Shown: piece after piece, positions 8,218-27,363 of the stretch | Layout: each line of letters begins with the position of its first letter | Position numbering within the stretch: position 1 is the first letter of the stretch | IMG/VR virus record: IMGVR_UViG_3300021963_000040 | Span: 1-64,000 of that record | Origin: a virus | Reading direction: 5' to 3' (one strand) | DNA length: 64,000 nt | Program-made: the position numbers and the translations under genes | The notes under the pieces: model-generated | What the model was told of the DNA's origin: nothing | Seen by the model: the letters and a program-made list of their open reading frames with translations, nothing else | Databases searched by the model: none

Positions 8218-8240
8218 TTTACCAGTTGGTTTAGTATCAA

Positions 8241-8309: not shown

Positions 8310-8341
8310 TTGTATCGTAAGAACCTTAGTGGATCCAATAC

Positions 8342-11300: not shown

Positions 11301-14300
11301 TTGCAGGTAGCTCTACATTAACAGCAGGTGTTAATAACGACAACTTAACATTTGAAGCAGGCTCTGGTATTAACATTACAACCAATGCCGGTATTAAGTC
11401 AGTTGTTATATCTAATACTGGTGTTAATGGATTAGTTGGTACACCTAATAGAGTTACAGTTTCTAATTCTACAGGAACTGTAACATTAACAACACCTCAA
11501 GATATTCACACAGGTGCGAGCCCAACATTTAACAACATCACTGCAACAGGTGGTGTAATTAATACTGGTGCTACTACATCATTCTTATTCCCAACAGTAG
11601 CAACAACTGTTAACATTGCTTCTGTGGCTAACGCTATTAACATTGGTAGAGCAAGTACTACAGTTACTATTCCTGGTAACTTAGTAGTTCAAGGTTCAAG
11701 CAGTATTGTTAACTCAACAGTAACATCTGTTCAAGATCCAATGATGGAACTTGGTGGCGGTCCTGACGGTGCATTACTAACTAGCGACGATGGTAAAGAT
11801 AGAGGTATTGCTTATCAATATTATTCAACAACAGCCAAGAAAGGCTTCTTTGGTCGTTCTGCATCAAACGGTAAGTTTGTTTATATTCCGACAGCTACTA
11901 TCTCCAGCGACATTGCAACAGGAGCAATTGGTGCATTTGATCTAAGCGGTACAGATGTATTAACTATTGCAGGTAATACTGGTTCTAAGACTCTAAAAGG
12001 TGGGGAAACATTTACTATCAGCGGTGGTTCATTACTAAGCACAACCGTAAGTAACAACACATTAACATTAGGTCTAAACAATACAGCAGTATCAGCAGGT
12101 ACATATGGTTCTGCAACACAAACTGTAACATTTACAGTTGATGCACAAGGTAGACTAACTGGTGCAAGTCAGCAAAGTATTGCTATTCCTAGCACACAAA
12201 TTACTGACTTTACTGAAGCCGCACAAGATGCCGCATCAGCATTGTTCACTAACGGAACACACACTGGTATTACTGCGGCCTATGATGATAACAACGGTAA
12301 AATTAATCTAAGCCTAAATACAACTGGTGTAACAACTGGTACATGGACAAAAGTAACAGTAGATACATACGGTAGAATTACAGCGGGTACAAATTTAACC
12401 GGCACAGACATTACTAATACATTAGGTTATACTCCACTTAATAAAGCCGGAGATGGCATGTCTGGTTTCTTAACATTAAGTGCCGATCCAACTAATAGTT
12501 TACATGCCGCTACTAAAGGTTATGTTGATACTAGTATTAATACTTTAACTACATTAGTTAATTTAGTAAGTAAACCTGCGGTTAAAGTAGCAACAATTTC
12601 TAACTTAGCATCACTAAGCGGAACTCAAACCATTGACGGTTATGCTACATCTGTAGGTGACAGAGTTTTAGTCAAAGACCAAAATACACCTAGCCAAAAC
12701 GGTATTTACATTGTTGCATCTGGTTCATGGACTCGCGCCGCAGATGCAAGCCAAGGTACATTGGTTCCTGGTGCATACGTAACAGTATTAAATGGTAATA
12801 CATGGTCTGGATATTCCTTTATTTGTAACAACGGAACACAGATTACAGTTGGTACAACTGATGTAACATTTAACATCTTCCAAGCACCTGTAGCATTCAT
12901 GGGCGGTGCTGGCTTAGTACGTAATAGTTTAACATTTGATGTAGGAACAGCAAGCTCAAATCGTATTGTAGTTAACGCCGACAATATCGACTTGGCAACA
13001 ACAGGTGTAGTTTCAGGCACATATAATACTGTTACAGTAGATGCGTATGGTCGTGTTACAACGGGTGCTAACACAGCATACTTAACACAGAACGAAGTAA
13101 TTAACGTAACAGGTGATGTTACTGGTTCCGGTCGTCAATCATTAGGTTTAACCTTAGTTAATAGTGGCGTAACAGCAGGTACATATGGTACATCAATGGC
13201 CGTTCCACGTATTACCGTTGACGCAAAAGGTCGTGTAACTAATGTTACAACTGAAGCATTTGTTGCTCCAGTTAATAGCGTTGCAGGTAAAGTTGGTAAT
13301 ATTACACTAACTGCGGCTGATGTTGGATTGACTAACTTGGCTAATAGCTTACAAGTTATCAACGATGGTTCAACCCCAAGCATTGCGGCCGGTCTAGAAT
13401 CTGCCAAAGGTAGTCCGGACATTACCAAGGTTGGTAGAATTTGGATAGCAACAGATACAACAACACTATGGAGAGATACTGGTACTGCATGGATTCCATT
13501 GATTCCGCAATTTACTGGTGATGTTACAAAACCATTAGGTAGTACAGCATTAACATTATCTAACACTGGTGTTACTGCCGGCGTATACGGTAACGGCGCC
13601 CAAATTCCTATTGTAACAGTTGACGCTAAGGGCCGTGTAACAAGCATTTCTACAAGCCCAATTACAGGTTCATTCACATTGATTATGCAAGGTGACATGA
13701 CTGCTAGCGGTACTTCTGAACAAACTATTACAGCAACATTAGCAAATACTGGCGTAGTTGCTGGTAACTATGGTACAGGTACAACTATTCCTGCAATAAC
13801 AGTAGATACAAAAGGTCGAATTACTTCTGCAACTACAACACCAATTTCATTCCCAGTAGCCAGCGTTGCTGGCAAGACTGGCACAGTTACACTATCTGCA
13901 TCTGACGTTGGACTAAGTGCGGTTGCTAACAACCTACAAGTTATCAACGCTGGCAATGCCGTAAGTATTGCAACAGGTCTAAACAGTGGTAAGCCTGCGG
14001 CCGCAACAGCAGGTCGTTTATACTTCTCAACAGACACCGGCGGCATCTACTACGATACTGGTAGTGCTTGGACACTAATGACTCCTGCGTTAAGCGGAGA
14101 TGCTACTACATCTGCAAACGGTACAACAATTACTCTTGCTAACACAGGTGTAACAGCAGGTACATATGGTAGTTCCAGCGTTGTTCCGGTTGTAACAGTA
14201 GACTCAAAAGGACGTATTACTGGTGTAAGCACAGCAAGCATTCCTTCTAGTTCAATTACTATAACAGGTGATATTAGCGTAAGCGGCACCGCAGGTACAT

Positions 14301-17300
14301 CAATGACTGCTACACTAGCTACTAGTGGCGTAACAGCAGGCTCATATGGTAGCTCAACATCTATTCCGGTAATTACAGTTGATAGTAAAGGTCGTGTAAC
14401 AAGTTTATCTACAAGTTCTATATCTAGTACAATTACACTAACAGGAGATGTAACAGCTACAGGCTCAACTGGTTCTAGTTTTGCTACTACATTAGCGGCA
14501 AGCGGTGTAACAGCAGGCTCATACGGTTCTACAACACAAGTTGGTGTAGTAACAGTTGATACCAAAGGTCGTGTAACCAGTGCAAGCAATTCTTCTATAG
14601 CGTTCCCTGTAACTAGCGTTGCAAGCCGTACTGGTGCAGTTACATTAACAAAAACTGATGTTGGACTTGCTAACGTTTCAAATAGTTTACAAGTTATTAA
14701 TAGTGGTAGCGCAAATACATTACAAGTTGGCACAGCCGCAAGCCGCCCAACAGCAGGTACTAGTGGTAGAATTTATATTACCAGCGATACTAACACATTG
14801 TTCTGGGATAACGGTACAAGCTGGACAAGCATTACGCCAGCATATACAGGCGATGCAACAGTTGCGGCCGGCGCAACAACTATTACATTAGCCAATAGCG
14901 GTGTATCAGCGGGTACATATGGTTCTGCTACAGCCATTCCAACAATTACTGTAGATGCAAAAGGTCGTGTAACTAGTGTATCTACATCAAGTATTTCTAG
15001 CGCATTGACATTCACCGGCGATGCAACTGGATCTGGTTCAACTGGCGGTTCAGTGGCATTGACACTAGCCAATAGCGGTGTAACAGCAGGTACATATACA
15101 AAGGTAACTGTAAACGCTAAAGGCTTAGTAACAGCAGGTGCAACAGCCACAGCTGATGATATGGCTGAAGGTGCAACCAACAAGTATTATACTGATGCTA
15201 GAGCAAGAGCCGCAGTAAGTGCCGGCACAGGCATTAGTTATAATAGTTCAACTGGGGTATTCAGTTTACCACAATCAATAGCAACAACAGACGGTGTTAC
15301 ATTTGGTTCCGCTACAATTACAGGTAACCTAAGTGTTGGTGGTACATTAACTGTAACTGGAGGTACTACTACTATTCAAAGCTCTACGCTAAACGTTACA
15401 GATCCAATGATTTATCTAGCTAGCGGTAATAGTGCAAACTTAGCAGACATTGGTTTTGTTGGTAGTAGTGTTATCAGCAGTACAACCAAATATACAGGTT
15501 TAGTAAAAGTTGCGGCAGATGGTAAGTGGCGCTTGTTTGGCGGTATTACCAGCGTTCCTACTACAACTATTAATACCGCAGATGTTGGCTTTACTAAAGA
15601 TACATTATTAGCTAACATTGAAGGTAACGTTACTGGTAACCTTACTGGTGCAGTAACAGGTAACGCTGACACAGCAACCAAGTTAGCAACAGCACGTACT
15701 ATTACCTTAGCCGGTGACGTATCTGGTAGCGCATCTTTTGACGGTAGTGCAAATATAAGCATTACTACAACTGGCGTATCTTCTCCTAAGTGGAGTACAG
15801 CACGTACATTGAGCTTTACTGGTGATGCAACAGGTAGCATGTCAGTTGACGGTAGTGCAAATGCAAGCACCGCACTAACATTAGCCGCATCCGGTGTAGC
15901 GGCAGGCGTTTACGGTAGCTCAACAGCTATTCCATTAATCACAGTTAACTCCAAAGGTTTAATTACCAGCGTAAGCACAAGTAATATTTCTGTAACATCT
16001 AGTAGTATCAGCGACTTTACAACAGCGGCTCGTGCAGTTAACTCTGCAGGCTCTGGTATTACATATAGCGGCGGCGTAATTACTAATACTGGTGTATTGG
16101 CAGTAAGCGCAGGCACCGGCATTAGTGTAAGCACAACAGGCGGTACAGCAACTATTACTAACGGTGACTTAGGTTCATCACAAATGATCTATAAGAACAT
16201 TAGTGATGGCACAACAACAGCATCTGCAGGTTCTAACAACGATACAATTAAATTTAGAGCAAGTACAGGTGTTACAGTAACAGTAGGTAGTAATGATGCA
16301 ACTCACGGCGATAACGTGTTAATTGGATTAAGTTCTATTCCAAACTCTTCGTTAGCTAACAGTTCAGTAACTGTAACAGCAGGTACCGGCTTAAGTGGCG
16401 GTGGTTCAGTTGGTTTAGGTAGTTCTATTACATTAACCAACGCAGGTGTAACAAGCATCAGCGGTACAGCTAACCAAGTTGTTGCTACCGGAAGTACAGG
16501 TGCTGTAACATTAAGTTTACCACAAAGCATTGCGACGGCTTCAAGTCCTACTTTTGCAGGTATGACATTAAGCGGTTTAACAGGATATGTTTATGCTAAC
16601 GGTGCTGGGGTAATGACAGCCAGTGCCACAATACCTGCCGCGGCAATCAGTGGTTCAATTCCAAGTACAACTAACGCAGTTAACACTGGTATTACTGACG
16701 ACACAACTACAGCGGCCACAAAGTATATTACATGGGTAGATGCAACAAGTGGTAATCAACCACAGAAGGTAAGCTCTACTAAGTTAACATTTAACCCAAG
16801 CACAGGCGATCTAACAGCAACTAGGTTTGTTGGTTCTGGTGCAGGATTAACAAGCATTCCAACAAGCGCATTAGCAAGCAGTTCAGTAACTATTACAGCA
16901 GGTTCTGGCTTAACTGGTGGCGGTACTGTTTCATTAGGTAATAGTATTACAATTACCAATGCTGGTGTAACTAGTATTACTGCCGGTACAGGCATGAGTG
17001 TGTCCGCATCTACTGGTGCGTTGACTGTTAATAACACAGGTGTAACAAGTATTACTGGTACAGCTAACCAAATTACCGCAAGCGCAAGCACAGGCGGTAT
17101 TACACTAAGTCTACCACAAAGTATTGCAACAGGGTCTACACCGACATTTGCTGGTGTAATTGCTGGTAACTTCTATGACAGCACAGGCACATATAACAGT
17201 AACTTAGGTAGCGGTAACTCTGCAGGCCGAGGTGTTGTTGCAGGTTATAGCGGTGGCGCATATGGCGGTATTGGTTATAACATTACTCATACTGGAACAA

Positions 17301-18796
17301 GCTCAGTATACAACAAACCATTAAACGATACAACAAGTTATCTACGTTTTGATACAGGTGGATTTAACTTCTTAACTAATACCAGCGCAACAGCCGCAAG
17401 TAGTATTTCAATGACATCTATTGCTTCTCTAAGCAGTGGTGGTGTGTTCAATGCTACTGGTGGTTTACAAGTTAACGGTGTTAACGTAGTTACAACTGGT
17501 ACCATATCAGGCCTAGCACCTAGCTTAACAGGTTCAGGTGCAAGCGGTACATGGGGTATTAGTATTTCAGGTAATGCGGCTACAGTAACCAGTGGTGTTT
17601 ATACAACCGGTTCATATGCAGATCCTGCATGGATTACAAGCCTAGCAGGTTCAAAAATTACAGGTACTATTTCCGGTACCGTAGCTTCAGCTACTAATGC
17701 AACCACAGTAGGCGGCGTATCTAAGTCTCAGTTGTTTAATAACACAGGTAACAACCATAGTACATATCAGTCATTTGGCGCTATACCTGACTTTGGCTTC
17801 TATCACATACAAAACAACGCGGCCGCAGATCGCCCATCTAACCACCAACAGTATTCGTTGACTTTTGGTTTAGGTAACGATTATGCGCTAAGTTCTTATG
17901 CACACCAAGTTGCGTTCCCTCGTATCGGTACATATAGCGGCTCTGGTGGTGATAACAACAACTACATGTGGATTCGTCAGCGTGAAGGCGGCACCTGGAG
18001 TAACTGGGGCAAGGTATATGCAGGTTATGCAGATACTGCCGGCACAGCAAGTAACATCAGTGCATACACTATTAACCAAAACGTTGGTTCTAGTAACGCT
18101 CCTACATTTGCTGGTCTAACCTTAACCGGTGCAGTAACAAATAGTAGCACAACTACTTTCAACGGCGCAGTTAACGTTGGCACAAGCACTAACTTATCAT
18201 TCGGTAGCCAAACACGCCAGATGATTAACTTATGGAGTACATCATATGGTTTAGGTGTACAGTCAAGTACAACTTATATCCGCTCTGGTGGTAGATTCAG
18301 CTTCCACAGAGGCGGCACACATAGTGATACTGAAAACGATCCAGGATCTGGTGGTACAGTAGCAATGAGCTTAGACAGCTCTAGCAACTTAAACGTTACT
18401 GGTGACGTTGTAACAGCATTCTCAGATATCCGCTTAAAAGTTATAGAAGGTAAGATTCTAAGTGCAGTTGACAAAGTTAAACAGCTTGACGGTTTCTACT
18501 ATACAGACAATGACCTAGCTAAAGAAATTGGTGCCGGCAACGGTAAACGTAAAGTCGGTCTAAGTGCTCAACAAGTACAGGCCGTATTGCCAGAAGCTAC
18601 ACAAATTGCACCATTTGACCAAGACGAGAACGGTAACAGTAAGAGCGGCAAGGATTACCTAACCGTTCAATACGAAAAACTAGCACCATTGTTTGTTGAA
18701 GCGATCAAAGAACAAGATGCTAAGATCGAAGCACAGGCAAAAGAAATTGCTGATCTTAAAAATCTTGTTGCTCAGCTCATGGATAAATTAAAGTAA
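8342..18796 (+). CDS. Giant (3484-aa) repetitive fibre protein with a C-terminal intramolecular chaperone (peptidase S74-like)
   Basis: T/G/S-rich, with about 18 copies of GVxAGxY...TVDxKGRxT. The C-terminus has SDIRLK...VGLSAQQVQAVLPEA...YEKLAPLFVEAIKEQ plus a coiled coil. Confidence 0.85.
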   Translation: MYKIKTNNSFVINTAGTDQLEVGPNGDIQVLTGYLSTTKKPTQSFHVATKEYVDSVAQGLDVKESCQALADSNVNISNPPNTIDTWILSIGDRILLINQAEKADNGIWVYNGPGNPLTRASDANSNDLVTNGMYALVTEGTSYRATGWILTTAGAIDLGVTHLTFVQFTGTGGLTAGNGIQFAGRVISAVSANVDNIDISSAGINLAPIGPGYGTYNHVTADAYGRIVAAEHINYLTDNNIITIVGDASGSGRTTINLTLANTGVTPGLYTPELNKAPTFSVDNHGRLTYAGLGNVTITASSVTDFAEAVQDTVNDFINLDPSTGLQTTYNDGANTYTLSLRTTGVAAGTYGDDTHTVIATVDAQGRITNLEEVLIDFPVKSVNGANGDVIVDESGNLTLDKTSVGLGNLENALQVINAGGVPRMLVGTTATRPANNSAAPGTLFVNTDTFAIERDTGVVWTTIRPAVAGDVNIPAGSGSSVLSNSGVTAGTYTKVIVDAKGRVTSGTQVTNNDIVTGLGYTPLNLAGDTMTGPLAVQGGALNDLPITFSGNTTTGIYSPGTNSIAIVTNGVARQRVTSGGRTLIGAGVDNNVDVLQVFGNIKANDPTSTSHVATKNYVDTSISAAIAISTTDDVDEGLGNLYYTDTRVRNALGVSGNLQYNALTGVFSYITPNTDGITEGSTNKYYTDTRVRNALAASGSGLLYNAVNGTFTVNSTANATANTLVFRDVNGNFSAGTITATLQGNAATSTRLATARTIAISGDATWSTSFDGSTNVTSGLTLSTVNSAPGSFGATNKTLSATVDAKGRITALSHADINIVSAQISDWASSVRTTAGGMFTSNAESGVAAVYNSTTGKVDFDVADFDLTFTGDATGTNSVINLTNTSIALTLADTGITAGVVGGANAIPVLTLDSKGRVIGVNTTVPNITASNVSNFVEAAQDATASLITAATHEGVSVAYDDDNNKLAFTNTDKGSTQQIFKNIFVAGSSTLTAGVNNDNLTFEAGSGINITTNAGIKSVVISNTGVNGLVGTPNRVTVSNSTGTVTLTTPQDIHTGASPTFNNITATGGVINTGATTSFLFPTVATTVNIASVANAINIGRASTTVTIPGNLVVQGSSSIVNSTVTSVQDPMMELGGGPDGALLTSDDGKDRGIAYQYYSTTAKKGFFGRSASNGKFVYIPTATISSDIATGAIGAFDLSGTDVLTIAGNTGSKTLKGGETFTISGGSLLSTTVSNNTLTLGLNNTAVSAGTYGSATQTVTFTVDAQGRLTGASQQSIAIPSTQITDFTEAAQDAASALFTNGTHTGITAAYDDNNGKINLSLNTTGVTTGTWTKVTVDTYGRITAGTNLTGTDITNTLGYTPLNKAGDGMSGFLTLSADPTNSLHAATKGYVDTSINTLTTLVNLVSKPAVKVATISNLASLSGTQTIDGYATSVGDRVLVKDQNTPSQNGIYIVASGSWTRAADASQGTLVPGAYVTVLNGNTWSGYSFICNNGTQITVGTTDVTFNIFQAPVAFMGGAGLVRNSLTFDVGTASSNRIVVNADNIDLATTGVVSGTYNTVTVDAYGRVTTGANTAYLTQNEVINVTGDVTGSGRQSLGLTLVNSGVTAGTYGTSMAVPRITVDAKGRVTNVTTEAFVAPVNSVAGKVGNITLTAADVGLTNLANSLQVINDGSTPSIAAGLESAKGSPDITKVGRIWIATDTTTLWRDTGTAWIPLIPQFTGDVTKPLGSTALTLSNTGVTAGVYGNGAQIPIVTVDAKGRVTSISTSPITGSFTLIMQGDMTASGTSEQTITATLANTGVVAGNYGTGTTIPAITVDTKGRITSATTTPISFPVASVAGKTGTVTLSASDVGLSAVANNLQVINAGNAVSIATGLNSGKPAAATAGRLYFSTDTGGIYYDTGSAWTLMTPALSGDATTSANGTTITLANTGVTAGTYGSSSVVPVVTVDSKGRITGVSTASIPSSSITITGDISVSGTAGTSMTATLATSGVTAGSYGSSTSIPVITVDSKGRVTSLSTSSISSTITLTGDVTATGSTGSSFATTLAASGVTAGSYGSTTQVGVVTVDTKGRVTSASNSSIAFPVTSVASRTGAVTLTKTDVGLANVSNSLQVINSGSANTLQVGTAASRPTAGTSGRIYITSDTNTLFWDNGTSWTSITPAYTGDATVAAGATTITLANSGVSAGTYGSATAIPTITVDAKGRVTSVSTSSISSALTFTGDATGSGSTGGSVALTLANSGVTAGTYTKVTVNAKGLVTAGATATADDMAEGATNKYYTDARARAAVSAGTGISYNSSTGVFSLPQSIATTDGVTFGSATITGNLSVGGTLTVTGGTTTIQSSTLNVTDPMIYLASGNSANLADIGFVGSSVISSTTKYTGLVKVAADGKWRLFGGITSVPTTTINTADVGFTKDTLLANIEGNVTGNLTGAVTGNADTATKLATARTITLAGDVSGSASFDGSANISITTTGVSSPKWSTARTLSFTGDATGSMSVDGSANASTALTLAASGVAAGVYGSSTAIPLITVNSKGLITSVSTSNISVTSSSISDFTTAARAVNSAGSGITYSGGVITNTGVLAVSAGTGISVSTTGGTATITNGDLGSSQMIYKNISDGTTTASAGSNNDTIKFRASTGVTVTVGSNDATHGDNVLIGLSSIPNSSLANSSVTVTAGTGLSGGGSVGLGSSITLTNAGVTSISGTANQVVATGSTGAVTLSLPQSIATASSPTFAGMTLSGLTGYVYANGAGVMTASATIPAAAISGSIPSTTNAVNTGITDDTTTAATKYITWVDATSGNQPQKVSSTKLTFNPSTGDLTATRFVGSGAGLTSIPTSALASSSVTITAGSGLTGGGTVSLGNSITITNAGVTSITAGTGMSVSASTGALTVNNTGVTSITGTANQITASASTGGITLSLPQSIATGSTPTFAGVIAGNFYDSTGTYNSNLGSGNSAGRGVVAGYSGGAYGGIGYNITHTGTSSVYNKPLNDTTSYLRFDTGGFNFLTNTSATAASSISMTSIASLSSGGVFNATGGLQVNGVNVVTTGTISGLAPSLTGSGASGTWGISISGNAATVTSGVYTTGSYADPAWITSLAGSKITGTISGTVASATNATTVGGVSKSQLFNNTGNNHSTYQSFGAIPDFGFYHIQNNAAADRPSNHQQYSLTFGLGNDYALSSYAHQVAFPRIGTYSGSGGDNNNYMWIRQREGGTWSNWGKVYAGYADTAGTASNISAYTINQNVGSSNAPTFAGLTLTGAVTNSSTTTFNGAVNVGTSTNLSFGSQTRQMINLWSTSYGLGVQSSTTYIRSGGRFSFHRGGTHSDTENDPGSGGTVAMSLDSSSNLNVTGDVVTAFSDIRLKVIEGKILSAVDKVKQLDGFYYTDNDLAKEIGAGNGKRKVGLSAQQVQAVLPEATQIAPFDQDENGNSKSGKDYLTVQYEKLAPLFVEAIKEQDAKIEAQAKEIADLKNLVAQLMDKLK

Positions 18797-18806
18797 AGGA
18801 ATAAAA

Positions 18807-19109
18807 ATGGCAGTTAAAGTAAATGCAACCACAGTAGTTGATAACTCAGGTAACGTAACACCTAGTGGTAGTTTTTCTACATCAGGAAATATTACAGCTA
18901 CAGGAACTGTTACAGCGGCCAGTGCCAGTGTAACGGGTAACGCAACGGTTGTTGGTACTACACAATCATTGGCTTTTTATAATTTAAACACAATAAGTTC
19001 AAACTTAACGATCCCGGCAAATACTAATGCAATGTTAGCTGGCCCTTTAACAATAGCAAGCGGGGTTACAGTTACAGTAAGTAGCGGATCGGGCCTAGCT
19101 ATTGTTTAA
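18807..19109 (+). CDS. Small beta-rich fibre-associated protein
   Basis: AAGGA SD; TIPANTNAMLAGPLTIASGVTVTV resembles segments found in phage fibre proteins. Confidence 0.55.
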   Translation: MAVKVNATTVVDNSGNVTPSGSFSTSGNITATGTVTAASASVTGNATVVGTTQSLAFYNLNTISSNLTIPANTNAMLAGPLTIASGVTVTVSSGSGLAIV

Positions 19110-19117
19110 GGGACAAA

Positions 19118-19696
19118 ATGAGCAATTTGATAACTAACAATTTACAGGGTCCTAGTAACTTAATTAATATTAATCCTGGATCAACATTAAATGCCGCAAC
19201 CACAGGCGGCATTGTTGCCCCCGGAATGATTATTCAATCAGTTTGGAACAGCACTTCTAGTAGAAGAACATACACAAGTCCACAATCGGGTAGTGGACAA
19301 CCAATATATGAATTAGAATTAAAAATTACCCCTGTCAGATCAACTAGTCAAATATATTTGCAATGGATGTTATTTTATGAAATGCATCATGATAACGTTT
19401 TTACAATTTTACGTAATGGCAGTCTAGTTGGGTATAATACACAAATGGGAGACTATATGTGGTCCGGAGTACAAGGTGGTAGATATGATCAGGATGCGGC
19501 CAGTACTCCACAAAATATAGCAATAACATTTATAGATGCCCCTGGTGGAACAAGTACTTACAATTATCAGTTAGCTGTACGTTGCAGTTCAAATACCAGT
19601 TATACATTTGCGTTGAATAGGCCTCTTAACAGTTGGGGCGGAGACAGTAACGAAACAGGTGTTAGCATGGGAATAGCTATGGAGATTGCACAATGA
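19118..19696 (+). CDS. Fibre-tip-like paralogue 1 of 6 (subgroup A)
   Basis: Shared pattern PGMIIQ...ITP..S.I.L...FALNR...ETGVSMGIAMEIAQ. Confidence 0.7.
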   Translation: MSNLITNNLQGPSNLININPGSTLNAATTGGIVAPGMIIQSVWNSTSSRRTYTSPQSGSGQPIYELELKITPVRSTSQIYLQWMLFYEMHHDNVFTILRNGSLVGYNTQMGDYMWSGVQGGRYDQDAASTPQNIAITFIDAPGGTSTYNYQLAVRCSSNTSYTFALNRPLNSWGGDSNETGVSMGIAMEIAQ

Positions 19697-20286
19697 GTAC
19701 CTTAGTCACAGGCATGATTATGGCCCCTGGCGGCCTAGGCGGTGCTATCCAAGTAACTCCGGATACAAGATTAGTTGGCGCCGCGGCCGGTGCGTTTGTT
19801 GCAAGGGGAATGGTTATTCAAACTGTAATTAATAAACAAAATAATAGATCTACTTGGTCATCGCCTCCTACGGGCAACGGTACAACAATTACTGATATGA
19901 ATTTGACTATTAGTCCTAAGCGTGCCGGTAGTATTATTTTGTGTGAATGGACAATGTTTGGCGAAATTCAACATAACAATGTATTTGTTATACATAAGAA
20001 TGGTAGTTTAGCGCCAGGCGGGTACAACTTAAATGCAGGCAATAACCGCTGGTCCGGTTATCATACTTGCGTGTATGATGGTGACGATAATAGTACACCA
20101 GCCACACATCACATGATGTATTGGGATAGCCCTGCCTCTACTGCATCTGTAACTTATGCACCAGCGATAAGATGTTCTAACGGCAATACTTACACATTTG
20201 CGTTAAATCGTACTTTAGGCAGTACAGGCCAATGGGCATATGAGAACGGTGTAAGTATTGGTATAGCATGGGAGATAGCGGCATGA
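19693..20286 (+). CDS. Fibre-tip-like paralogue 2 of 6 (subgroup A)
   Basis: GMVIQ...ISP...FALNR...ENGVSIGIAWEIAA; ATGA overlap with the previous gene. Confidence 0.7.
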   Translation: MSTLVTGMIMAPGGLGGAIQVTPDTRLVGAAAGAFVARGMVIQTVINKQNNRSTWSSPPTGNGTTITDMNLTISPKRAGSIILCEWTMFGEIQHNNVFVIHKNGSLAPGGYNLNAGNNRWSGYHTCVYDGDDNSTPATHHMMYWDSPASTASVTYAPAIRCSNGNTYTFALNRTLGSTGQWAYENGVSIGIAWEIAA

Positions 20287-20879
20287 GTTTTACAGAAGTA
20301 GGATCACTAACAGCATTATCAAGCAATCAGATTAACGTACCCTCAGGTCATGTAATTCTAGGAGAAGCCGGAAGTATAGTAACCCCAGGTTCGGTAATTC
20401 AAACGGCTTTTTCAAGAACAGATGTAAGAACAAGTTATTATAACTATACTCAAAATGACTATGTTCAATCATGGACTCCTATTCGTCAACTACAATTAAG
20501 AATAAAGCCGCTGTATGCTAGTTCTGCTATTTTTGTAAAGTTTGTTGTAAACTATGAAATGGAATACAATAGTATTTGGAATTTGTTAAAAGATGAACAG
20601 CCTTTTATTAGTACTATGAATGAATCATATCCTAGACGTTGGGCCGGTATGTGCGCCACTAACTATGATATGGGCGATCATAGTTCTACACCAAACCAAT
20701 TAACAATGATGTGGGTAGATATGCCAGGATCTGATCAAGCGCAGTCTTATAGTCCTGGCTTTAGACGAGCCGACGGCGGCGGTGTAACCTGTTGGTTAAA
20801 TAGAACATACAGTAGTTCTGGACAAGATTCATATGAGGTAGGAGTTAGTTACGGGGTTGCTATGGAGATTGCACAATGA
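20283..20879 (+). CDS. Fibre-tip-like paralogue 3 of 6 (subgroup A)
   Basis: Start revised to ATG 20283 (ATGA overlap, GGAG SD); PGSVIQ...IKP...WLNR...EVGVSYGVAMEIAQ. Confidence 0.7.
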   Translation: MSFTEVGSLTALSSNQINVPSGHVILGEAGSIVTPGSVIQTAFSRTDVRTSYYNYTQNDYVQSWTPIRQLQLRIKPLYASSAIFVKFVVNYEMEYNSIWNLLKDEQPFISTMNESYPRRWAGMCATNYDMGDHSSTPNQLTMMWVDMPGSDQAQSYSPGFRRADGGGVTCWLNRTYSSSGQDSYEVGVSYGVAMEIAQ

Positions 20880-21523
20880 GTAATTATCTTAACGTTGACA
20901 ACTTTACTGCCTTGGGCGGTTCTGGAACAATTAATGTTAAAGCAGGAACGTCAATAAACGGGACTGGAGGTTCTATTCAATGTCCCGGACAAATTGCTCA
21001 AGTTAAATTTAAGCATCTAGGTCCCAGTAGGTTAGGTGTTAGAAACGACAACTTAACTTTAGTTCCAGGAACAGAATTAGATTTTCGTTGTTATAGAGGT
21101 AATAGTAAAGTTTTATTAACGGCAACAATATGTGCTAATGCTCCTTATGTAACATCTTTTGGATTTTTAGTTGACGGGGCCACAATGTGGGACGCAACAG
21201 GAAATAGTAATGCCGCTGGTGCAATAGTTACACAATATGTAGGAACAGCCGCGCCTAATACAAGCGGCTATTTATGGTACGGTGGTACAACGGCGGCGCA
21301 ACAAACAACATCAAGAAACACCAACTCTGCAGGACAAGAACAAGTATATCAATTTTCAATGCAATATGTTTATACTCCGGGTGATGGTTCTTTAAAAACA
21401 TACTCTATAGGAGCAACTTGTTCTTGGGCCGGTCAAGGTGGATATATGTTACTAATTAATGATAGATGGTCGTATGACATGAGAGGCACAAGTACTATCA
21501 GTGCCATGGAGATAACACAATGA
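20876..21523 (+). CDS. Fibre-tip-like paralogue 4 of 6 (subgroup B)
   Basis: PGQIAQ...SKVLL...VTSFGF...SW...INDRWSYDMRGTSTISAMEITQ. Confidence 0.7.
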   Translation: MSNYLNVDNFTALGGSGTINVKAGTSINGTGGSIQCPGQIAQVKFKHLGPSRLGVRNDNLTLVPGTELDFRCYRGNSKVLLTATICANAPYVTSFGFLVDGATMWDATGNSNAAGAIVTQYVGTAAPNTSGYLWYGGTTAAQQTTSRNTNSAGQEQVYQFSMQYVYTPGDGSLKTYSIGATCSWAGQGGYMLLINDRWSYDMRGTSTISAMEITQ

Positions 21524-22146
21524 GTACTATTCAATTTAGTAACTTGCGAGCAAGAAGCGATTTAGTATATGGCGGCGGCGGGGCCCGAAGCCAAACAACA
21601 TATGGATTAGGTGGTACAGGGTCCGGTGCTGGTTATATTTACTTAAAACCCAATTGCTCTTTAGAAGCTCCTACAGTTGGGCAAATTGCGGCGCCAGGAA
21701 TGGTAGTACAAACAGCATGGGTTAATAGCTCTAGAAATAGACAAAATGTGTTTAGTGATAGTCTTGCTAACATCCCAGAATTGTCTATTGCTTTTGCGGC
21801 AAAATATTCAAACAGCTGGTTATTGTTAAGAGCTAACATTCAAGCAACCGGACGTCATGTAAGTACATTTGGTTTCAAAGCCAACGGTGCTAACATATAT
21901 AACTTAACCAATACAAACAGTGACGGATCGGTAACAACTACTTATTTTGGCGACGATAGTGATAGTTATCTGCGTACATTTTTTATCATGGGTAGATATT
22001 ATCCTGGTACAACTGGTACCATTACATATACATGTGCGGCTTCTGCGTCTTGGTCGGGCGGCACAAGAAACTGTTACATTAACGATAGAGATTCGAATGA
22101 TATGAGAGGTTCTAGTACTTTTACTATAATGGAGATTGCGGTATGA
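21520..22146 (+). CDS. Fibre-tip-like paralogue 5 of 6 (subgroup B)
   Basis: PGMVVQ...HVSTFGF...ASW...INDRDSNDMRGSSTFTIMEIAV. Confidence 0.7.
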   Translation: MSTIQFSNLRARSDLVYGGGGARSQTTYGLGGTGSGAGYIYLKPNCSLEAPTVGQIAAPGMVVQTAWVNSSRNRQNVFSDSLANIPELSIAFAAKYSNSWLLLRANIQATGRHVSTFGFKANGANIYNLTNTNSDGSVTTTYFGDDSDSYLRTFFIMGRYYPGTTGTITYTCAASASWSGGTRNCYINDRDSNDMRGSSTFTIMEIAV

Positions 22147-22799
22147 GTACACTTCAACCCGTTGGTCTAGACGGTGCAACAGGCGCTAACATTAAGATTA
22201 CATCTGGTACTACCCTTAAAGGTGAAGTACCTGGTGCATTCTCGGCTGAAGGATTAGTAATTCAAGTTGCTTACGCAGAAACACCAGTAGGTAACTATTA
22301 TGATTTAAACTATACTCTTGAACTAAGTGCCATTCCTGATATGTTCATTGATTTTAAACCAGTTTATGCTACTTCTAAAATTCTTTTAACGTCAATGATT
22401 AGTATTAATCAACCACATGTTACAAGTTTTGGATTTTTAAGAGACGGGCTCAATATTACAGCAAGACAATTTTCACTGGGTCCAACCCCGGCGGCGGTCA
22501 CTGCATCAGACTATACAGGTGCTGTAACTTATGCCCCAGGATCAATGTCTACACTACAACAAAATAGTAACGTGGTTGGTGGGTTACATACCGTTTATAT
22601 GAACTGGGATGCGGCTGATAAAATGTGTAATTTTTTCTTGCAACAACAAGATTTTGATAATCGATCAAATGCTACTAGAAGATATCAAGTAGGCGTTAAC
22701 GCATCTTGGGGCGATAGTGTTAGAAGTTTGCGTATTAATGATAGAAGCAGTGGCGATATGAGAGCAATCTCTAATTTATGTGTTATGGAGATTGTATAA
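22143..22799 (+). CDS. Fibre-tip-like paralogue 6 of 6 (subgroup B)
   Basis: GLVIQ...SKILL...HVTSFGF...ASW...INDRSSGDMRAISNLCVMEIV. Confidence 0.7.
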   Translation: MSTLQPVGLDGATGANIKITSGTTLKGEVPGAFSAEGLVIQVAYAETPVGNYYDLNYTLELSAIPDMFIDFKPVYATSKILLTSMISINQPHVTSFGFLRDGLNITARQFSLGPTPAAVTASDYTGAVTYAPGSMSTLQQNSNVVGGLHTVYMNWDAADKMCNFFLQQQDFDNRSNATRRYQVGVNASWGDSVRSLRINDRSSGDMRAISNLCVMEIV

Positions 22800-23893
22800 T
22801 GCCTATTCCTGTAAGTCAAGCAACAACTAGTTTTGTAAGGGTTGATCAAGTACAAGGTACTACCGGTGATGTTGGTATACAGACATTATCGCCTTATTGG
22901 GGGACTGCTACATTTTTAGGTCCGGGAAATTTTAACTTTAAAAAAACCGGTAGAGTAGTTATGCCAACTGATTGTAAAAAAGTTGTTTTTAACACTTTTG
23001 CAAGCGGCGGAAGTCAAAATTGGACCGTGCCACCTGGGGTGTCTTATGTATACATTAAAGTGTGGGGCTCTGGTGGCGGTGGTGGCCAGCAAGGTGGTTG
23101 GACACATGGTGCAGAAGGCGGAGCAGGCGGCCATAGTAGGGGATTATTAAGAGTATCGCCTGACGATGTATTATCTATTTCTGTTGCTCCTGGCGGCATT
23201 TCATTACCGCCTTACGGAAAGCCAGTAGCTCAAGGTGGCGGCGGTATGATTTTAGACAACCAACCAAATGTACCATCACAACAAGTTACAGGTGCATACG
23301 GTCCACAGGATCATAGATATTGTGGAGGTGGAGGTGGATATTCTGCTGTTTTTAGTGGAGGCCTACCTATGATAATAGCCGGTGGCGGCGGCGGCGGCGG
23401 AAGCCATAGCGGAACATGGAATCATTGGCCTAGGGGAGGTGCTGGCGGAGGAATTCGAGGACAAAACGGCTGGTCTAGCGCAGTTAACTGGGATTATCAA
23501 GCACGTGATCAAGCAGGCGGTGGAGGAAGCCAGTCTGGTGGTGGACACGGTTCATCTGCTCATAATAGTCATCAAGGAACCGCAGGTTTGTTCTTACAAG
23601 GTGGTCATGCTTTTGGCAGATATATGTATGGCGGAACAGGTGGCGGTGGCTTCTATGGCGGTGGTGCAGGTAGTCACACTCAGGGTGGCGCAGTAATGTG
23701 CGGCGGTGGTGGCGGATCTGGATTTTTACACCCTAGAATTTTAATGGGCGAAACCTTTACAGGTCACAGACAGTTTCCACCTTTAACAGAAGATCCTGAT
23801 TATCAAGCGAACGGCGGGAAACAAGCTAATATAGCACATGGCGGTGATATTGGTAATTACGGCGGCGAAGGTTTAATTATTATATATTATTAA
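22799..23893 (+). CDS. Glycine-rich domain protein 1 (polyglycine adhesin-like)
   Basis: Start revised to ATG 22799 (TAATG overlap). QNWTVPPGV..YIKVWGSGGGGG, repeated GGGGG motifs, C-terminal GGEGLIIIYY. Confidence 0.7.
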   Translation: MPIPVSQATTSFVRVDQVQGTTGDVGIQTLSPYWGTATFLGPGNFNFKKTGRVVMPTDCKKVVFNTFASGGSQNWTVPPGVSYVYIKVWGSGGGGGQQGGWTHGAEGGAGGHSRGLLRVSPDDVLSISVAPGGISLPPYGKPVAQGGGGMILDNQPNVPSQQVTGAYGPQDHRYCGGGGGYSAVFSGGLPMIIAGGGGGGGSHSGTWNHWPRGGAGGGIRGQNGWSSAVNWDYQARDQAGGGGSQSGGGHGSSAHNSHQGTAGLFLQGGHAFGRYMYGGTGGGGFYGGGAGSHTQGGAVMCGGGGGSGFLHPRILMGETFTGHRQFPPLTEDPDYQANGGKQANIAHGGDIGNYGGEGLIIIYY

Positions 23894-23902
23894 GGAAATA
23901 GA

Positions 23903-24904
23903 ATGCCAGGCATTATTAAAGTTGATCAAATTAGATCGCCTCAAGGAACTAACGGATTTAGATTTAATACCAGTACAAAGCAGGTAGAACAAATTGCTCC
24001 TGGTGATTTTTATTTACAGGTTGAAGGCGAGACATTTACGCCAAATAATAAAGTGTTTATGGCTTTCTTTTATAATGAAGCTCAAACAGGCTCTTATGAT
24101 CAAACTTGGACAGTACCTACTGGAGTAACACACATATATTGTAAATTATGGGGTTCCGGGGGAGGTGGCGGATGTCAAGGTGGATGGAATCACGGAGGCC
24201 GCGGCGGCGGTGGCGGCCATACCAGGGGATTAATACCAGTCTCAGCCGGACAAACGGTAACTATTAGAGTACCAAGAGGAGGAAACAATCAACCGGGCAC
24301 AACAAACGCTCCTTTTGGTGGTGGTTCTAGTACTGCGGGCGGCGATAATCAATACGCCGCCGGCGGTGGTGGATATGCGGCTGTGCTAGTAGCTGGTACT
24401 GTATATTTGGTTGCAGGCGGCGGTGGTGGTGGCGGAAGTACAACATCGGGCGGATTTAATCACGAACAACATGGAGGCGCCGGCGGAGGAATAACTGGTC
24501 AAACAGGATATGATCTTAATACATTGTCCGAAGCTGGTAGAGGAGGAACACAATCAGGTGGTGGCGCAGGAGGTACAGGCGGCAATACTACCGGCCAAGC
24601 AGGAAGCGCATATCAAGGAGGATCCACTAACGGAAACCCATACGGTGGTGGAGGTGGTGGTGGCTATTATGGAGGCGGTGCGGGCAGTTACGGCGGCGCA
24701 GGTAACATGGGCGGAGGTGGCGGTGGTTCTGGGTACGTACACAGTTCAGTCCTTTTAGGCGGTACATTTTCGGGCGCATACGATAGACCGGCCTTTCATT
24801 GGGATAATGACTTACCCAAGTATAGATCTACATACACTGAATTTGCAGTAGGTGGGGATTATTGTAATCCAGGTGGCGACGGATTCGTCTGCATTTATTA
24901 TTGA
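23903..24904 (+). CDS. Glycine-rich domain protein 2
   Basis: QTWTVPTGV..YCKLWGSGGGGG ... GGDGFVCIYY; paralogue of its neighbours. Confidence 0.7.
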   Translation: MPGIIKVDQIRSPQGTNGFRFNTSTKQVEQIAPGDFYLQVEGETFTPNNKVFMAFFYNEAQTGSYDQTWTVPTGVTHIYCKLWGSGGGGGCQGGWNHGGRGGGGGHTRGLIPVSAGQTVTIRVPRGGNNQPGTTNAPFGGGSSTAGGDNQYAAGGGGYAAVLVAGTVYLVAGGGGGGGSTTSGGFNHEQHGGAGGGITGQTGYDLNTLSEAGRGGTQSGGGAGGTGGNTTGQAGSAYQGGSTNGNPYGGGGGGGYYGGGAGSYGGAGNMGGGGGGSGYVHSSVLLGGTFSGAYDRPAFHWDNDLPKYRSTYTEFAVGGDYCNPGGDGFVCIYY

Positions 24905-24927
24905 TAAGTATAGTATAAAGGAATTTT

Positions 24928-26604
24928 ATGCCACGTAATGTTGTTAGATCAGGTTTAGTATCATACATTGATCCGAGAGATTCTGCTAGCTATAACGGAT
25001 CAGGTACAACTGTGACCGATTTAAGTGGTAAAGGCAACGATTGGATAATCCAGGGCAATGTAAGCTGGGATAGTACAAACGGTTTTGGTAACTTTACAGG
25101 TAACAGCACTGGATCTGGTAACAAGTTATATGCAAAAGTATCATCGGCTTATTACAACTTAAAAACCAGTCAAAACGGAACAGGATATACTATTTGTATT
25201 TGGGCAAAAAGTACAGGTGGTACGGGTGCATGGAGAGGTCTAATTAAAAACGCTGACGGCGAGAACTATATTGATTTATATCAAAGTCCTACCGGTCTTT
25301 GGCACCAAGACGGATCAGGTGAATACTTATATTATAACGATGGCAATTATGTTGCCAACGACTCATTAACAATGTCTGACTCTGTTTGGCGTATGTATGT
25401 TGCTACAAATTTAAATAATGGAACTACTACTAACCCATCAACAGGTTTAACAATAGGTAACGAACCAAACGGTTCTGGTACTGGCGCAAACGCTTATCCT
25501 TGGGTAGGACAAGTAGGCGCCGTATTAATTTATAATAGAGTATTATCTAAGCAAGAACTAGTTAACAATTTTGCGGCTTTTAGTTCTGTATATGGTGTAT
25601 CTGGATCAAGCGGTATTCCTGCCGCAGGATTTTTAGTAGCAAATGAAATTAATAGCTCAATATCCGAAGGTGGAGTGTATGCAAGCCCGGGCGTTGATTC
25701 AGTTGTCGGGCTAAAAGTTATAGGTAATAAAGATATGGTTTTGAATTTCCAAGGATTCAAAACTCCTACAAATAAAACCAAAGCAACATGGAGCTATACT
25801 GGCGGTGATCAAAGCTGGACTGTGCCAGCAAATGTATTTTATGTATGGGCAAAAATATGGGGAGCCGGCGGGGGTGGTGGATGTGCTGGCGGTTGGACTC
25901 ACGGGGCACAGGGAGGTGCAGGAGGATTTAGTGACGGCCTCATACCAGTAACTCCGGGTGAAGTACTTACTATACGTGTTCCGAGAGGGGGGTATAGAAC
26001 TCCTGGTGCAACTAATGCTCCATACGGCGGTGGTTCTAGCACTTCGGGCGGCGATAATCAATATGCCGGCGGGGGCGGTGGCTACTGCGGTATTTTTAGA
26101 AGTTCACAGCCTTTATTAATTGCAGGCGGAGGCGCAGGCGGAGGATCCACTACAAATTGGAACCAATGGTGCCATGGTGGTGCAGGCGGTGGAGTAGAAG
26201 GAGAACACGGTTATTGTGAAATTTATACTTACGCAGGTACAGGGGGCGGCCCTGGCGCAGGTGGTACCGGAGGCAATGGTAACAATACAGGCGGTGGTGG
26301 TGGATCATCATTGCAAGGCGGATCAGTACAAGGTAACGTTTATGGTGGCGGAGGCGGTGGTGGCTATTTTGGTGGTGGCTCCGGTAGCTACGGCAATGGC
26401 TATATAATGGGTGGCGGCGGTGGTGGATCTGGATATGTACATACTACTGTACTACTAGGCGGCACATATACTGGTAGTAGAACTACACCACCATTTGCTG
26501 AAGACCCAGATTTACCTAAAACCGGATCAACTTATCAAACACATGCTTTTGGTGGCCAAACATGCGGCCATGGCGGTGATGGGTATTGTGTAATATATTA
26601 TTAA
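24928..26604 (+). CDS. LamG/concanavalin-like domain fused to glycine-rich domain 3
   Basis: N-terminal GLVSYID...SYNGSGTTVTDLSGKGN...GQVGAVLIYNRVLSKQEL (LamG-like); C-terminal Gly-rich domain ending GGDGYCVIYY. Confidence 0.75.
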   Translation: MPRNVVRSGLVSYIDPRDSASYNGSGTTVTDLSGKGNDWIIQGNVSWDSTNGFGNFTGNSTGSGNKLYAKVSSAYYNLKTSQNGTGYTICIWAKSTGGTGAWRGLIKNADGENYIDLYQSPTGLWHQDGSGEYLYYNDGNYVANDSLTMSDSVWRMYVATNLNNGTTTNPSTGLTIGNEPNGSGTGANAYPWVGQVGAVLIYNRVLSKQELVNNFAAFSSVYGVSGSSGIPAAGFLVANEINSSISEGGVYASPGVDSVVGLKVIGNKDMVLNFQGFKTPTNKTKATWSYTGGDQSWTVPANVFYVWAKIWGAGGGGGCAGGWTHGAQGGAGGFSDGLIPVTPGEVLTIRVPRGGYRTPGATNAPYGGGSSTSGGDNQYAGGGGGYCGIFRSSQPLLIAGGGAGGGSTTNWNQWCHGGAGGGVEGEHGYCEIYTYAGTGGGPGAGGTGGNGNNTGGGGGSSLQGGSVQGNVYGGGGGGGYFGGGSGSYGNGYIMGGGGGGSGYVHTTVLLGGTYTGSRTTPPFAEDPDLPKTGSTYQTHAFGGQTCGHGGDGYCVIYY

Positions 26605-26616
26605 GGAAATAAAATC

Positions 26617-26997
26617 ATGATGGATTATGTTAAAGAAGCCTTAAACATCTTAGCCCCTAATAAGTCATGGGTTAATAGAGGCGATTATATAGAATGGGCA
26701 GATGCAGAATGGGGTGCTAATGAATACAAACCTACTTGGGCAGAGATTAACCCTGTAATAGCACAACTACGTGCGGCAGAGCCTATGAGATTACTGCGTG
26801 AAGAACGTGACCGAAGACTTGCTTTATCTGATTGGATTGTAGTAAAGTCTTTAGAAAATGGTGTAGCAGTACCACAAGCATGGAAAAATTATAGACAAGC
26901 ACTACGAGACTTGCCTACAACTAGCTCTCCGCAATGCTGGCCTACAGATATATTGATAATGGAATCAATTAATTGGCCAACACCCCCTAACGCTTAA
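26617..26997 (+). CDS. Tail fibre assembly chaperone-like protein
   Basis: LREERDRRLALSDW...WKNYRQALRDLP...WPTPP motif. Confidence 0.8.
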   Translation: MMDYVKEALNILAPNKSWVNRGDYIEWADAEWGANEYKPTWAEINPVIAQLRAAEPMRLLREERDRRLALSDWIVVKSLENGVAVPQAWKNYRQALRDLPTTSSPQCWPTDILIMESINWPTPPNA

Positions 26998-27027
26998 ATA
27001 CAATATTAAAAATACAAAGGAATTATT

Positions 27028-27363
27028 ATGCCACTAGATCCAAATATGAGAGTAGAAAAAAGATTCGGCATAGGTGATGCACTAATAGTGTTAGCACCAA
27101 CCGCTCGTTGGTCAATGACCAACGATGAGTACGAATCAATTGATTGGATGGAAGATTCTGTTCCAAAACCAAGTAAATCAGCTTGCCTTGAAAAAGTAGC
27201 AGAATTGCAAGCAGAATATGATGCAATGCGCTATGCTAGGGATCGTTTATATGCTTATCCTAGTGTAGAAGAACAACTGGATACATTGTTCCATGGCGGA
27301 TATGATGCGTGGAAAACAATGATCCAATCAGTAAAAGATCAATACCCTAAACCAGGTAATTAA
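27028..27363 (+). CDS. Second fibre-assembly-like protein
   Basis: YARDRLYAYPSVEEQLDTLFH...WKTMIQSVKDQYPKP, a pattern typical of small fibre-locus proteins; AAGGA SD. Confidence 0.6.
   Translation: MPLDPNMRVEKRFGIGDALIVLAPTARWSMTNDEYESIDWMEDSVPKPSKSACLEKVAELQAEYDAMRYARDRLYAYPSVEEQLDTLFHGGYDAWKTMIQSVKDQYPKPGN

Follow-up and report, generated by a model that had tools for sequence, protein, structure and literature searches.

A split phage fibre with three families of three paralogous tip proteins, and a limit of three copies among the tandem tip genes of related loci

In several phages, receptor-binding protein (RBP) trimers are mounted on one adaptor through short N-terminal docking parts, as in the BppU-BppL systems of TP901-1/Tuc2009 and in the CBA120-like branched tailspikes. 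These trimers are homotrimers, and the separately encoded adhesin gp38 of T2/S16-type phages binds as a single copy. Outside phages, C1q, collagen VIII and lymphotoxin are heterotrimers of paralogous chains of the TNF/C1q fold, and the recognition head of C1q is a single ordered heterotrimer whose three paralogous chains are the products of tandem genes. Here we analyse a fibre locus in the first 64 kb (64,000 nucleotides [nt], referred to as the window) of the 134,798-base viral record IMGVR_UViG_3300021963_000040 of IMG/VR, for which CheckV gives a completeness of 38%. On its + strand this locus carries, in order, a 3484-amino-acid (aa) open reading frame (ORF) encoding a giant fibre, a 100-aa ORF encoding a protein here called g100, nine ORFs encoding heads (A1 to A3, B1 to B3, and C1 to C3) and two small ORFs (D1 and D2). 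We consider with good confidence that the nine head proteins are fibre-tip domains of the receptor-binding type placed behind the fibre and an adaptor, because of their predicted folds, the adaptor module, an N-terminal motif common to most of them and the chaperone genes of the locus.

The adaptors of the TP901-1/Tuc2009 and CBA120-like systems are unrelated to g100. Closer parallels exist for individual parts of the locus. The one-piece tip proteins of ~300 aa of marine cyanomyoviruses (P-TIM40 gp040, S-RIM50 gp211) and the fibres with an A-type head at the C terminus (phrog_6942) contain the same two modules in the same order, adaptor then head, but as one chain from a single gene, whereas the window encodes each module by a gene of its own and has several copies of the head. 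The C1q head (6z6v, 5hzf) has a jelly-roll fold like that predicted for A2, and a related locus, L022, encodes a triplet with true Pfam C1q domains; unlike C1q, families A and B have no Pfam C1q match and no collagen stalk, and a heterotrimer is in their case only a proposal. Likewise, Pgp3, the lectin PLTL, BclA and Bd2734 superpose on A2 at rmsd (root mean square deviation) values between 2.6 and 3.0 over 117-134 residues, but they are only 6-15% identical to it, are not phage proteins and are not encoded as three tandem paralogues. Phage Pam3 resembles the window in both heads and chaperones. [quoted passage not shown] Pam3 gp24/gp25 (7ypx/7yfw) and the window have in common a TNF-like domain with a glycine-rich lattice at the tip and an adjoining, separate chaperone gene; however, gp24 is the homotrimeric product of one gene with an alpha-helical N-terminal anchor, while the window has three paralogues, a beta-rich N-terminal segment, a separate adaptor and a LamG domain in one member. 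The T2/S16-type gp38 resembles what is proposed for the window in being a separately encoded adhesin on the fibre end that uses polyglycine-II for receptor binding, whereas the C proteins of the window are of the ALK/Pam3 type. With regard to glycine-rich domains, a comparison to the gp38 adhesins is made in the paper on Pam3 (PMC9608196).

An initial annotation of this DNA, made from its letters alone, had described a 3+3+3 array of paralogues, and this array is borne out. BLASTP similarity within each family lies far above chance, with identities of 32-43% among A1, A2 and A3 (E 3e-46 to 5e-24; A1 and A2 share 43%, and A3 is the most divergent member), 26-32% among B1, B2 and B3 (E 1e-20 to 1e-17) and, over partial local alignments, 40-54% among C1, C2 and C3 (E 2e-26 to 3e-7). 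The motifs quoted for the three triplets are all found in the program translations, namely, LNR...E.GVS.G.A[MW]EIA at the C terminus of triplet A; V[TS][ST]FGF, SW, INDR.S.DMR[GA].S, and MEI in triplet B; and GG[DE]G...IYY at the C terminus of triplet C. The coordinates given there also hold, except for the start codons of A3 and C1, which we place at 20283 and 22799; these starts are likely because they yield ATGA overlaps at all five A/B junctions (A1>A2, A2>A3, A3>B1, B1>B2, and B2>B3) and TAATG at the B3>C1 junction.

The window has a split fibre, in which the adaptor module and the free heads are encoded as separate genes. The 100-aa protein had been called adaptor-like, and the same module does end the fibre ahead of such heads in other phages. 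Its consensus ends in ...GPITI..GVTVTV.SG..W.IV, and g100 matches the C termini of fibre PHROGs (phrog_5342, positions 3259-3319 of 3319, E 1e-6). By profile search, there are 11 distinct loci in which the ORF that immediately precedes the first head run has a g100-like module at its C terminus (the window, S-WAM2, ACG-2014j, L008, L012, L022, L048, L050, L079, L080, and L082). For S-WAM2 and ACG-2014j this ORF is the giant fibre, with exactly three heads of ~190 aa behind it. The module is also fused ahead of a head in 42 of 45 one-piece proteins of ~300 aa from P-TIM40-type cyanophages, where it occupies aa ~10-138 and is followed by the head at ~119-299. The module is encoded in at least 434 IMG/VR loci, g100 is its sole copy in the 134.8-kb record, and the ESM Atlas matches of g100 are only unnamed viral clusters. 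Head runs located downstream of a chaperone gene have no adaptor of their own, so that one adaptor gene serves several head units, as in the multi-unit loci L012 (2+3), L022 (2+2, then three C1q-like), L050, L079, and L080. The suggestion that the nine proteins are interchangeable tips is in part upheld by these loci, several head units per single adaptor gene being the norm in the relatives; the interchangeable units, though, may be three trimers and not nine proteins.

Families A and B had been presented as separate, like C. There are indeed three groups of three, but A and B are distant relatives belonging to one superfamily. BLASTP alignments between them reach E values as low as 9e-8, and both match the C-terminal ~200 residues of the tail-fibre PHROGs phrog_6942 and phrog_7459, with cross-matches between the two; A1, for example, aligns with positions 508-707 of the 708 of phrog_6942 (E 1.8e-17), and B2 is 41% identical to the C-terminal half of a 300-aa protein of cyanophage P-TIM40. 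No Pfam family, including C1q (PF00386) and TNF, matched the A and B proteins above its cut-off at E <= 0.1, the scan giving for A1 a sub-threshold YfzA match only, and a PDB sequence search with the A profile returned nothing useful. A2 was instead modelled with AlphaFold2 (AF2) from 25 sequences, which gave a predicted local distance difference test (pLDDT) of 80 and a predicted template modelling score (pTM) of 0.74, the first ~36 residues being of low confidence. In this monomer model, superposed on solved heads, residues 37-197 form a TNF/C1q-like jelly roll. Its structural matches are the C-domain of Chlamydia Pgp3 (4jdn; Z 12.8, rmsd 2.6 over 134 residues, Foldseek E 9e-6), the TNF-like lectin PLTL (9ib6, Z 10.7), Bdellovibrio Bd2734 (Z 9.7), BclA (1wck, Z 9.5), the C1q head (6z6v, Z 9.0; 5hzf, Z 8.8), EDA (1rj7, Z 8.6) and collagen VIII NC1 (Z 8.3), followed at lower scores by phage parts, which include the RBP head of Tuc2009 (Z 7.9), a tail protein of cyanophage A4 (Z 7.2), the Sf6 knob (Z 7.1) and the CBD of the A-1(L) short fibre (Z 6.6). 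All the best of these matches are trimer-forming heads. We thus predict that A and B are TNF/C1q-like jelly rolls of one superfamily, A by way of the model and B through its sequence link to A. The C-terminal M-E-I codons of the A and B heads (ATGGAGAT) place GGAG ~10 nt before the next start, and the six A and B genes are probably translationally coupled. At the level of DNA, the protein end, the ribosome-binding site and the next start together make up a 43-nt repeat with five copies (window 19657-22149).

For family C the predicted fold is a TNF-like jelly roll into which a polyglycine lattice is inserted, like that of ALK and Pam3 gp24. C1, C2, and C3 all exceed the PF12810 (ALK_LTK_GRD) cut-off, and C2 also narrowly reaches that of PF21722 (Gly_rich_2; 24.4 bits versus a cut-off of 24.3). 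The AF2 model of C2 (pLDDT 89, pTM 0.90) superposes on ALK (7nx3) with Z 16.1 and a Foldseek E of 8e-7, on the Pam3 fibre (7ypx) with Z 13.7, rmsd 2.5 over 161 residues and a Foldseek value of 8.5e-4, and on the Bxb1 tail tip (9d93) with Z 12.2, the next match reaching only 4.9. The link to polyglycine proteins drawn in the initial annotation therefore holds, but the nearest solved relatives are the Pam3 fibre and ALK and not gp38, which gave neither a Pfam match in the heads of the window nor a chain among the listed structural matches of C2. The fusion of one C member to LamG is likewise found, in C3 (Laminin_G_3, PF13385, 30.4 bits; cut-off 27.6). Sequence searches were of little help for this family: a PDB search with C2 gave nothing useful, tblastn of C2 against phages gave no match, probably because of the low-complexity filter, and a PF12810 search of the record itself returned nothing even though hmmscan matches C1 to C3, so that this route is insensitive for glycine-rich proteins.

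A short beta-type segment ahead of the domain had been noticed in several of the nine proteins. It is real and more general than was claimed, since it is recognisable in most of the window's nine heads and kept in most free heads of related loci. Most of the listed free heads of the A/B type start with MS.L.V[ND].[IL]...G..[IL]L...G.[IV].Q. Similar N termini are visible in a further family (named U), in true C1q-domain proteins and in triplet families of ~365, 250, and 125 aa, and the N terminus of g100 itself resembles the motif; families of ~215, 205, and 164 aa have related N termini of their own. Motif and adaptor module are conserved while the heads vary, and the simplest reading is accordingly that the motif serves to dock the head on the adaptor; most likely, as judged from these sequences, the N-terminal segment docks each head on a trimeric adaptor.

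Two chaperone-like genes had been reported to close the locus. D1 is a recognised chaperone, with a further match to phrog_4912 (tail fiber assembly, E 2.5e-15). D2, instead, has no Pfam match, and no BLASTP alignment was obtained between D1 and D2; it is placed by synteny and by bridging matches, such as one protein (L002 9572-10042) matched by both. The term chaperone-like is used for D2 on account of the D-type genes that stand behind the head runs of most related loci, as seen with a profile made from D1- and D2-like matches. Relatives of D2 are encoded in at least 505 IMG/VR loci. Single free heads usually have a D-type gene each, in the order head-D-head-D (L050, L080, L140, L142, L144, and L157), and runs of two or three heads usually share one; the window has two chaperone genes for its nine heads.

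TABLE 1 Coordinates of the fibre locus features and of the major capsid protein gene in the window
Feature	Position	Strand	Description and principal matches
Giant fibre	8342..18796	+	3484 aa; internal repeats; C-terminal Peptidase_S74 intramolecular chaperone domain
g100 adaptor	18807..19109	+	100 aa; stand-alone copy of the fibre-end module
A1	19118..19696	+	192 aa; predicted TNF/C1q-like stand-alone head (fold from the A2 model)
A2	19693..20286	+	197 aa; predicted TNF/C1q-like stand-alone head; modelled
A3	20283..20879	+	Predicted TNF/C1q-like stand-alone head; ORF opens at 20268, likely start 20283
B1	20876..21523	+	215 aa; B-branch head of the same superfamily; phrog_7459, E 3.6e-24
B2	21520..22146	+	208 aa; B-branch head; phrog_7459, E 2.9e-28; phrog_6942, E 1.3e-9
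B3	22143..22799	+	218 aa; B-branch head; phrog_7459, E 4e-27
C1	22799..23893	+	Glycine-rich head; ORF opens at 22778; PF12810, 25.2 bits (cut-off 24.5)
C2	23903..24904	+	333 aa; predicted TNF-like plus polyglycine supradomain; PF12810, 42.9 bits
C3	24928..26604	+	558 aa; N-terminal LamG, then glycine-rich head; PF12810, 35.5 bits
D1	26617..26997	+	126 aa; tail-fibre assembly chaperone; PF16778, 55.3 bits (cut-off 26.6)
D2	27028..27363	+	111 aa; chaperone-like; phrog_9114 (function unknown), E 5e-23
Major capsid protein	7051-8217		Pfam Gp23

The number of tandem copies was then counted in relatives of the locus, which were collected by their A-type heads (22 loci), B-type heads (53 loci), adaptor module (80 loci) and D2-like chaperones (80 loci), with ORFs called on the matching strand. 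Neighbouring genes were joined into one run when a BLASTP match between them had E < 1e-4 and covered at least 50% of the shorter one; runs at contig ends were left out, and a single gene entered the count only where it encodes a TNF-like or glycine-rich head. By this coverage rule the C genes of the window failed to form a run and were counted as singles. The 269 runs, from 238 loci and the window, were collapsed into lineages by sequence identity (Table 2). The expectation that copy numbers would come in multiples of three was rejected, runs of one and two being common. Runs of more than three are, instead, almost absent: only 2 of 194 lineages exceed three members. Free variation of copy number among relatives, which the initial annotation would have taken as speaking against its idea, is thus seen by halves, up to three members and hardly beyond. 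One is a run of four (L203), made up of a 326-aa protein with a fibre-like N terminus and three proteins of ~205 aa, and the other a run of six (L221), which consists of two families of three that stand separate in L198, L200, and L237. A run of two continues to three with a frequency of 0.37-0.57, and a run of three to four with a frequency of 0-0.06 (Fisher p from 0.036 at 40% to 2e-9 at 90% deduplication). When TNF-like head segments were delimited by profile adjacency, 66 distinct segments were obtained, of which 38 have one member, 12 have two, 15 have three, none has four or five and one has six; the latter is the window, which a tree splits into a B clade (support 100/93) and an A branch of three each.

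TABLE 2 Numbers of run lineages by run size after deduplication at four identity levels
Deduplication	Size 1	Size 2	Size 3	Size 4	Size 6
90% (n = 194)	103	43	46	1	1
70%	100	36	37	1	1
50%	90	23	14	0	0
40%	35	17	10	0	0

Tandem tip genes thus stop at three copies in several sequence-distinct head families. Among the families that occur in threes are the TNF-like A and B, the Pfam C1q triplet of L022 (PF00386 at 32.5 and 27.8 bits; cut-off 23.7) and the Gly_rich_2 triplet of P-TIM40 (gp042/043/044, with 269/529/269 aa), and the L100 triplet is also Gly_rich_2; in six further triplet families (~365, 215, 205, 164, 150, and 125 aa) the representatives scanned had no Pfam match. In the P-TIM40-like glycine-rich lineage, all 29 counted runs, those touching a contig edge being dropped, have three members. 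Around the C1q triplet, locus L022, from an uncultured phage, shows two pairs of TNF-like heads, the three tandem C1q-domain proteins and then three ~150-aa paralogues (4996-6554 and 6980-8369). In P-TIM40 the glycine-rich triplet has a small gene downstream, directly after which come two tryptophan halogenase genes in tandem (L030 12462-15558); these entered the count as a run of two outside the fibre genes.

A limit of this kind is to be expected if the chains of a trimer come from one, two or three genes, and the cap at three fits a heterotrimer. Neither homotrimers that are interchangeable, nor trimers mixed at random, nor heads stacked in series would lead one to expect three chains at most per unit. 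We accordingly propose a scheme in which each family would assemble as a pseudo-threefold heterotrimer (A1A2A3, B1B2B3, and C1C2C3), the phage would make three alternative asymmetric tips for the same adaptor, and each tip would display three different sets of receptor-binding loops. That the three members of each family form one ordered heterotrimer, giving three alternative tips on one adaptor, is the explanation that we rank first and may well be correct as far as the sequences tell, although we stop short of calling it probable. We count in its favour that a whole run often has just one chaperone, whereas each single head has a chaperone to itself, that the TNF/C1q fold is the classic setting for heterotrimers of paralogues, and that a count of three, orthologous positions and a divergent middle member are kept in certain groups of triplets, as well as the predicted translational coupling of the A and B genes. 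A predicted complex of three g100 chains with A1, A2, and A3, run without controls, scored 0.21 and 0.23 against a mark of 0.32, which tells in neither direction about binding.

A number of observations, taken up in this and the next three paragraphs, weigh against the heterotrimer. The checkable phage heads of these folds, Pam3 gp24 (PMC9608196) and the A-1(L) gp33 short fibre, are one-gene homotrimers. Since single free heads with their own chaperone are common, homotrimerisation is taken to be ancestral and may persist in each paralogue. The same facts favour another explanation, in which the nine heads would be independent homotrimeric tips that compete for the adaptor, so that the virions carry a mixture that hedges the host range, and the threes would be an accident of duplication history or of selection for few tip types. 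Such an explanation also agrees with the several head units per adaptor that are the norm in the relatives, with the free occurrence of runs of one and two, and with the divergence of the paralogues, which at 26-45% identity over their full length are different enough for separate specificities. However, it gives no reason for the stop at three in many sequence-distinct head families, nor does it explain the constant three in all 29 runs of one glycine-rich lineage or why a run has one chaperone when each single head has its own. We regard nine homotrimeric tips as unlikely, though as an explanation to be taken seriously.

The phylogeny of the heads bears on a second alternative. B1 to B3 form one clade (100/93), as do L028 4-6 (100/98), and glycine-rich triplets group by position within subgroups, as orthologues do, and by subgroup at depth (subgroup support 99-100). 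Triplets are often one clade per phage lineage, which makes them recent or homogenised and not one ancient ABC set; triplication may have occurred repeatedly, or the copies been homogenised, while their number stayed at three. In other triplets a divergent middle member is common to S-WAM2_2, L021_2, and L028_2 (81/87; Shimodaira-Hasegawa approximate likelihood ratio test [SH-aLRT] 94 in another tree), and A3 groups weakly with L002_2 beside this position-2 clade, the branch joining all five rows having a support of 30/67. If paralogues of a family were co-expressed recent duplicates, their trimers might arise by random mixing, the order ABC not being fixed. Cross-assembly is frequent among duplicates of homomers, translational coupling is likely for the A and B genes, and many triplets are recent or homogenised within a lineage. 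Random mixing nevertheless sets no ceiling of three genes, identity within the triplets is already low, and positions that are orthologous within subgroups, together with a conserved divergent middle member, speak against it, so that we think it quite improbable.

The heterotrimer is also weighed down by the domain composition of some chains. Among the 150 best representatives there was no single chain with two to four heads, and one protein, P0216 (1454 aa), carries five tandem TNF-like heads with linkers of ~15-35 aa. The latter shows that in-line arrays of the fold exist, as would be expected if the heads of the window stacked in series or branched along the fibre, each homotrimer docking on the previous one; furthermore, the adaptor end ...W.IV and the A/B end ...MEI plus one or two residues are similar hydrophobic C-terminal strands. 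Stacking, however, would need the conserved N-terminal motif to bind the variable far surface of the preceding head, it sets no cap at three, and unrelated head families share the motif while the adaptor module is a conserved partner directly upstream. We give it very little credence. As for other chains with additional domains, in three settings one of the three chains of a triplet has an extra domain, namely C3 (LamG), P-TIM40 gp043 (529 aa) and the first genes of the L014 group (512-535 aa), of which a 524-aa protein (L014 5412-6986) has the N-terminal motif, a glycine-rich domain and an A-type head. Two proteins of ~406 aa, P0186 and P0237, have an A-type head and then a C-terminal extension that is LamG-like by eye only.

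The count itself supplies further points on the same side. Runs of two are as frequent as runs of three, and some of them are not fibre genes, such as the tryptophan halogenase genes by the P-TIM40 fibre genes. The cap has its weakest support at the strictest deduplication (p 0.036), and full independence of the lineages is not given. How large a run is also varies with the rule of similarity applied, profile adjacency alone giving six in a row in the window, and adjacency by the N-terminal motif gives three loci with four in a row (two A-type, one B-like, and one U). Finally, the giant fibre of the window ends not in an adaptor module but in an S74 domain (PF13884; aa 3361-3419, about nt 18422-18598; 30.3 bits, cut-off 22), predicted to be self-cleaving.

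Beyond the window, ordered ABC heterotrimers of TNF/C1q-fold heads could represent an unrecognised general design of phage tips, in which a stand-alone tip would be encoded by one gene as a homotrimer, by two in a 2:1 ratio or by three in a 1:1:1 ratio, with three genes as the maximum per unit. We advance this generalisation tentatively and hold it to be somewhat doubtful.

The fibre locus has a composite background. The major capsid protein shares 67-69% identity with its counterparts in Sinorhizobium phage Phosso, Cronobacter GAP32, Pectobacterium CBB, and similar phages of 350-470 kb, on which basis we assign the record to a jumbo T4-like myovirus of the GAP32/Rak2 type. The relatives of its tip genes among deposited phages are marine cyanomyoviruses only: A2 matches S-WAM2 and ACG-2014j (four records of two phages) at three places in each, and B2 matches 27 cyanophage records at one place per record. 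Given a GAP32-type capsid and cyanomyoviral tip-gene relatives, the fibre module is mosaic with respect to the rest of the genome; a megablast search of the entire locus against phage records returned no match. Within 8000-28000, the repeats consist of internal fibre repeats, weak paralogue or chance similarities and the 43-nt junction motif, with a single weak inverted pair that is 71% complementary. The statement that the locus works without a diversity-generating retroelement (DGR) or an invertase is in line with this, in that no template/variable repeats or flanking inverted repeats were found in this interval, a reverse transcriptase or recombinase not having been searched for. The giant fibre contains the internal direct-repeat families D1-D6. 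One fibre repeat family (window 9000-17200) has nine copies of a ~95-nt unit, spaced around 177-183 and 396-402 nt among others, with a conserved ...T[VI]D.KGR[VI]T... stretch. The fibre module ends near 27360, and the next genes (NUDIX, gp15-like) lie on the - strand. A 139-aa ORF on that strand (27360-27779) converges on D2 with a 4-nt overlap; neither PHROG (E <= 0.001) nor Pfam (E <= 0.01) gave a match for it.

In open-access papers and bioRxiv, supplements excluded, no phage paper was found on a heterotrimeric tail fibre or receptor-binding protein. Across the same two sources, no paper was found on C1q-like phage tips, and a query for TNF-like heterotrimeric RBPs surfaced only phage 812 baseplate papers. 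Tip genes in threes are not mentioned in the accessible portions of PMC10966104 and PMC1079782 or in the cyanophage literature searched. The parts of the locus are thus of known kinds, while the split into adaptor and free heads, the putative docking motif common to different head families and the cap at three were not found in the literature searched.

Two features of these loci hold independently of stoichiometry, namely the separation of the adaptor from free heads that have a motif in common, and the stop at three copies. Adaptor module and motif together can serve in practice to locate receptor-binding genes in aquatic phages that are uncultured. As to assembly, the general assumption for phage fibres and tips is that they are homotrimers, and both the engineering of host range and the prediction of receptors rest on it. 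If three chains build one tip, the binding surface would be asymmetric, with three loop sets per fibre and each gene evolving separately; S-WAM2 (gp159-161), ACG-2014j (gp089-091), and P-TIM40 (gp042-044) are culturable cyanophages that carry such triplets. Should the heterotrimer be a general design, the receptor-binding surface would lose its threefold symmetry, as in complement C1q, and several units would share one adaptor via the common motif, the window being the fullest case, with nine genes and three tips.

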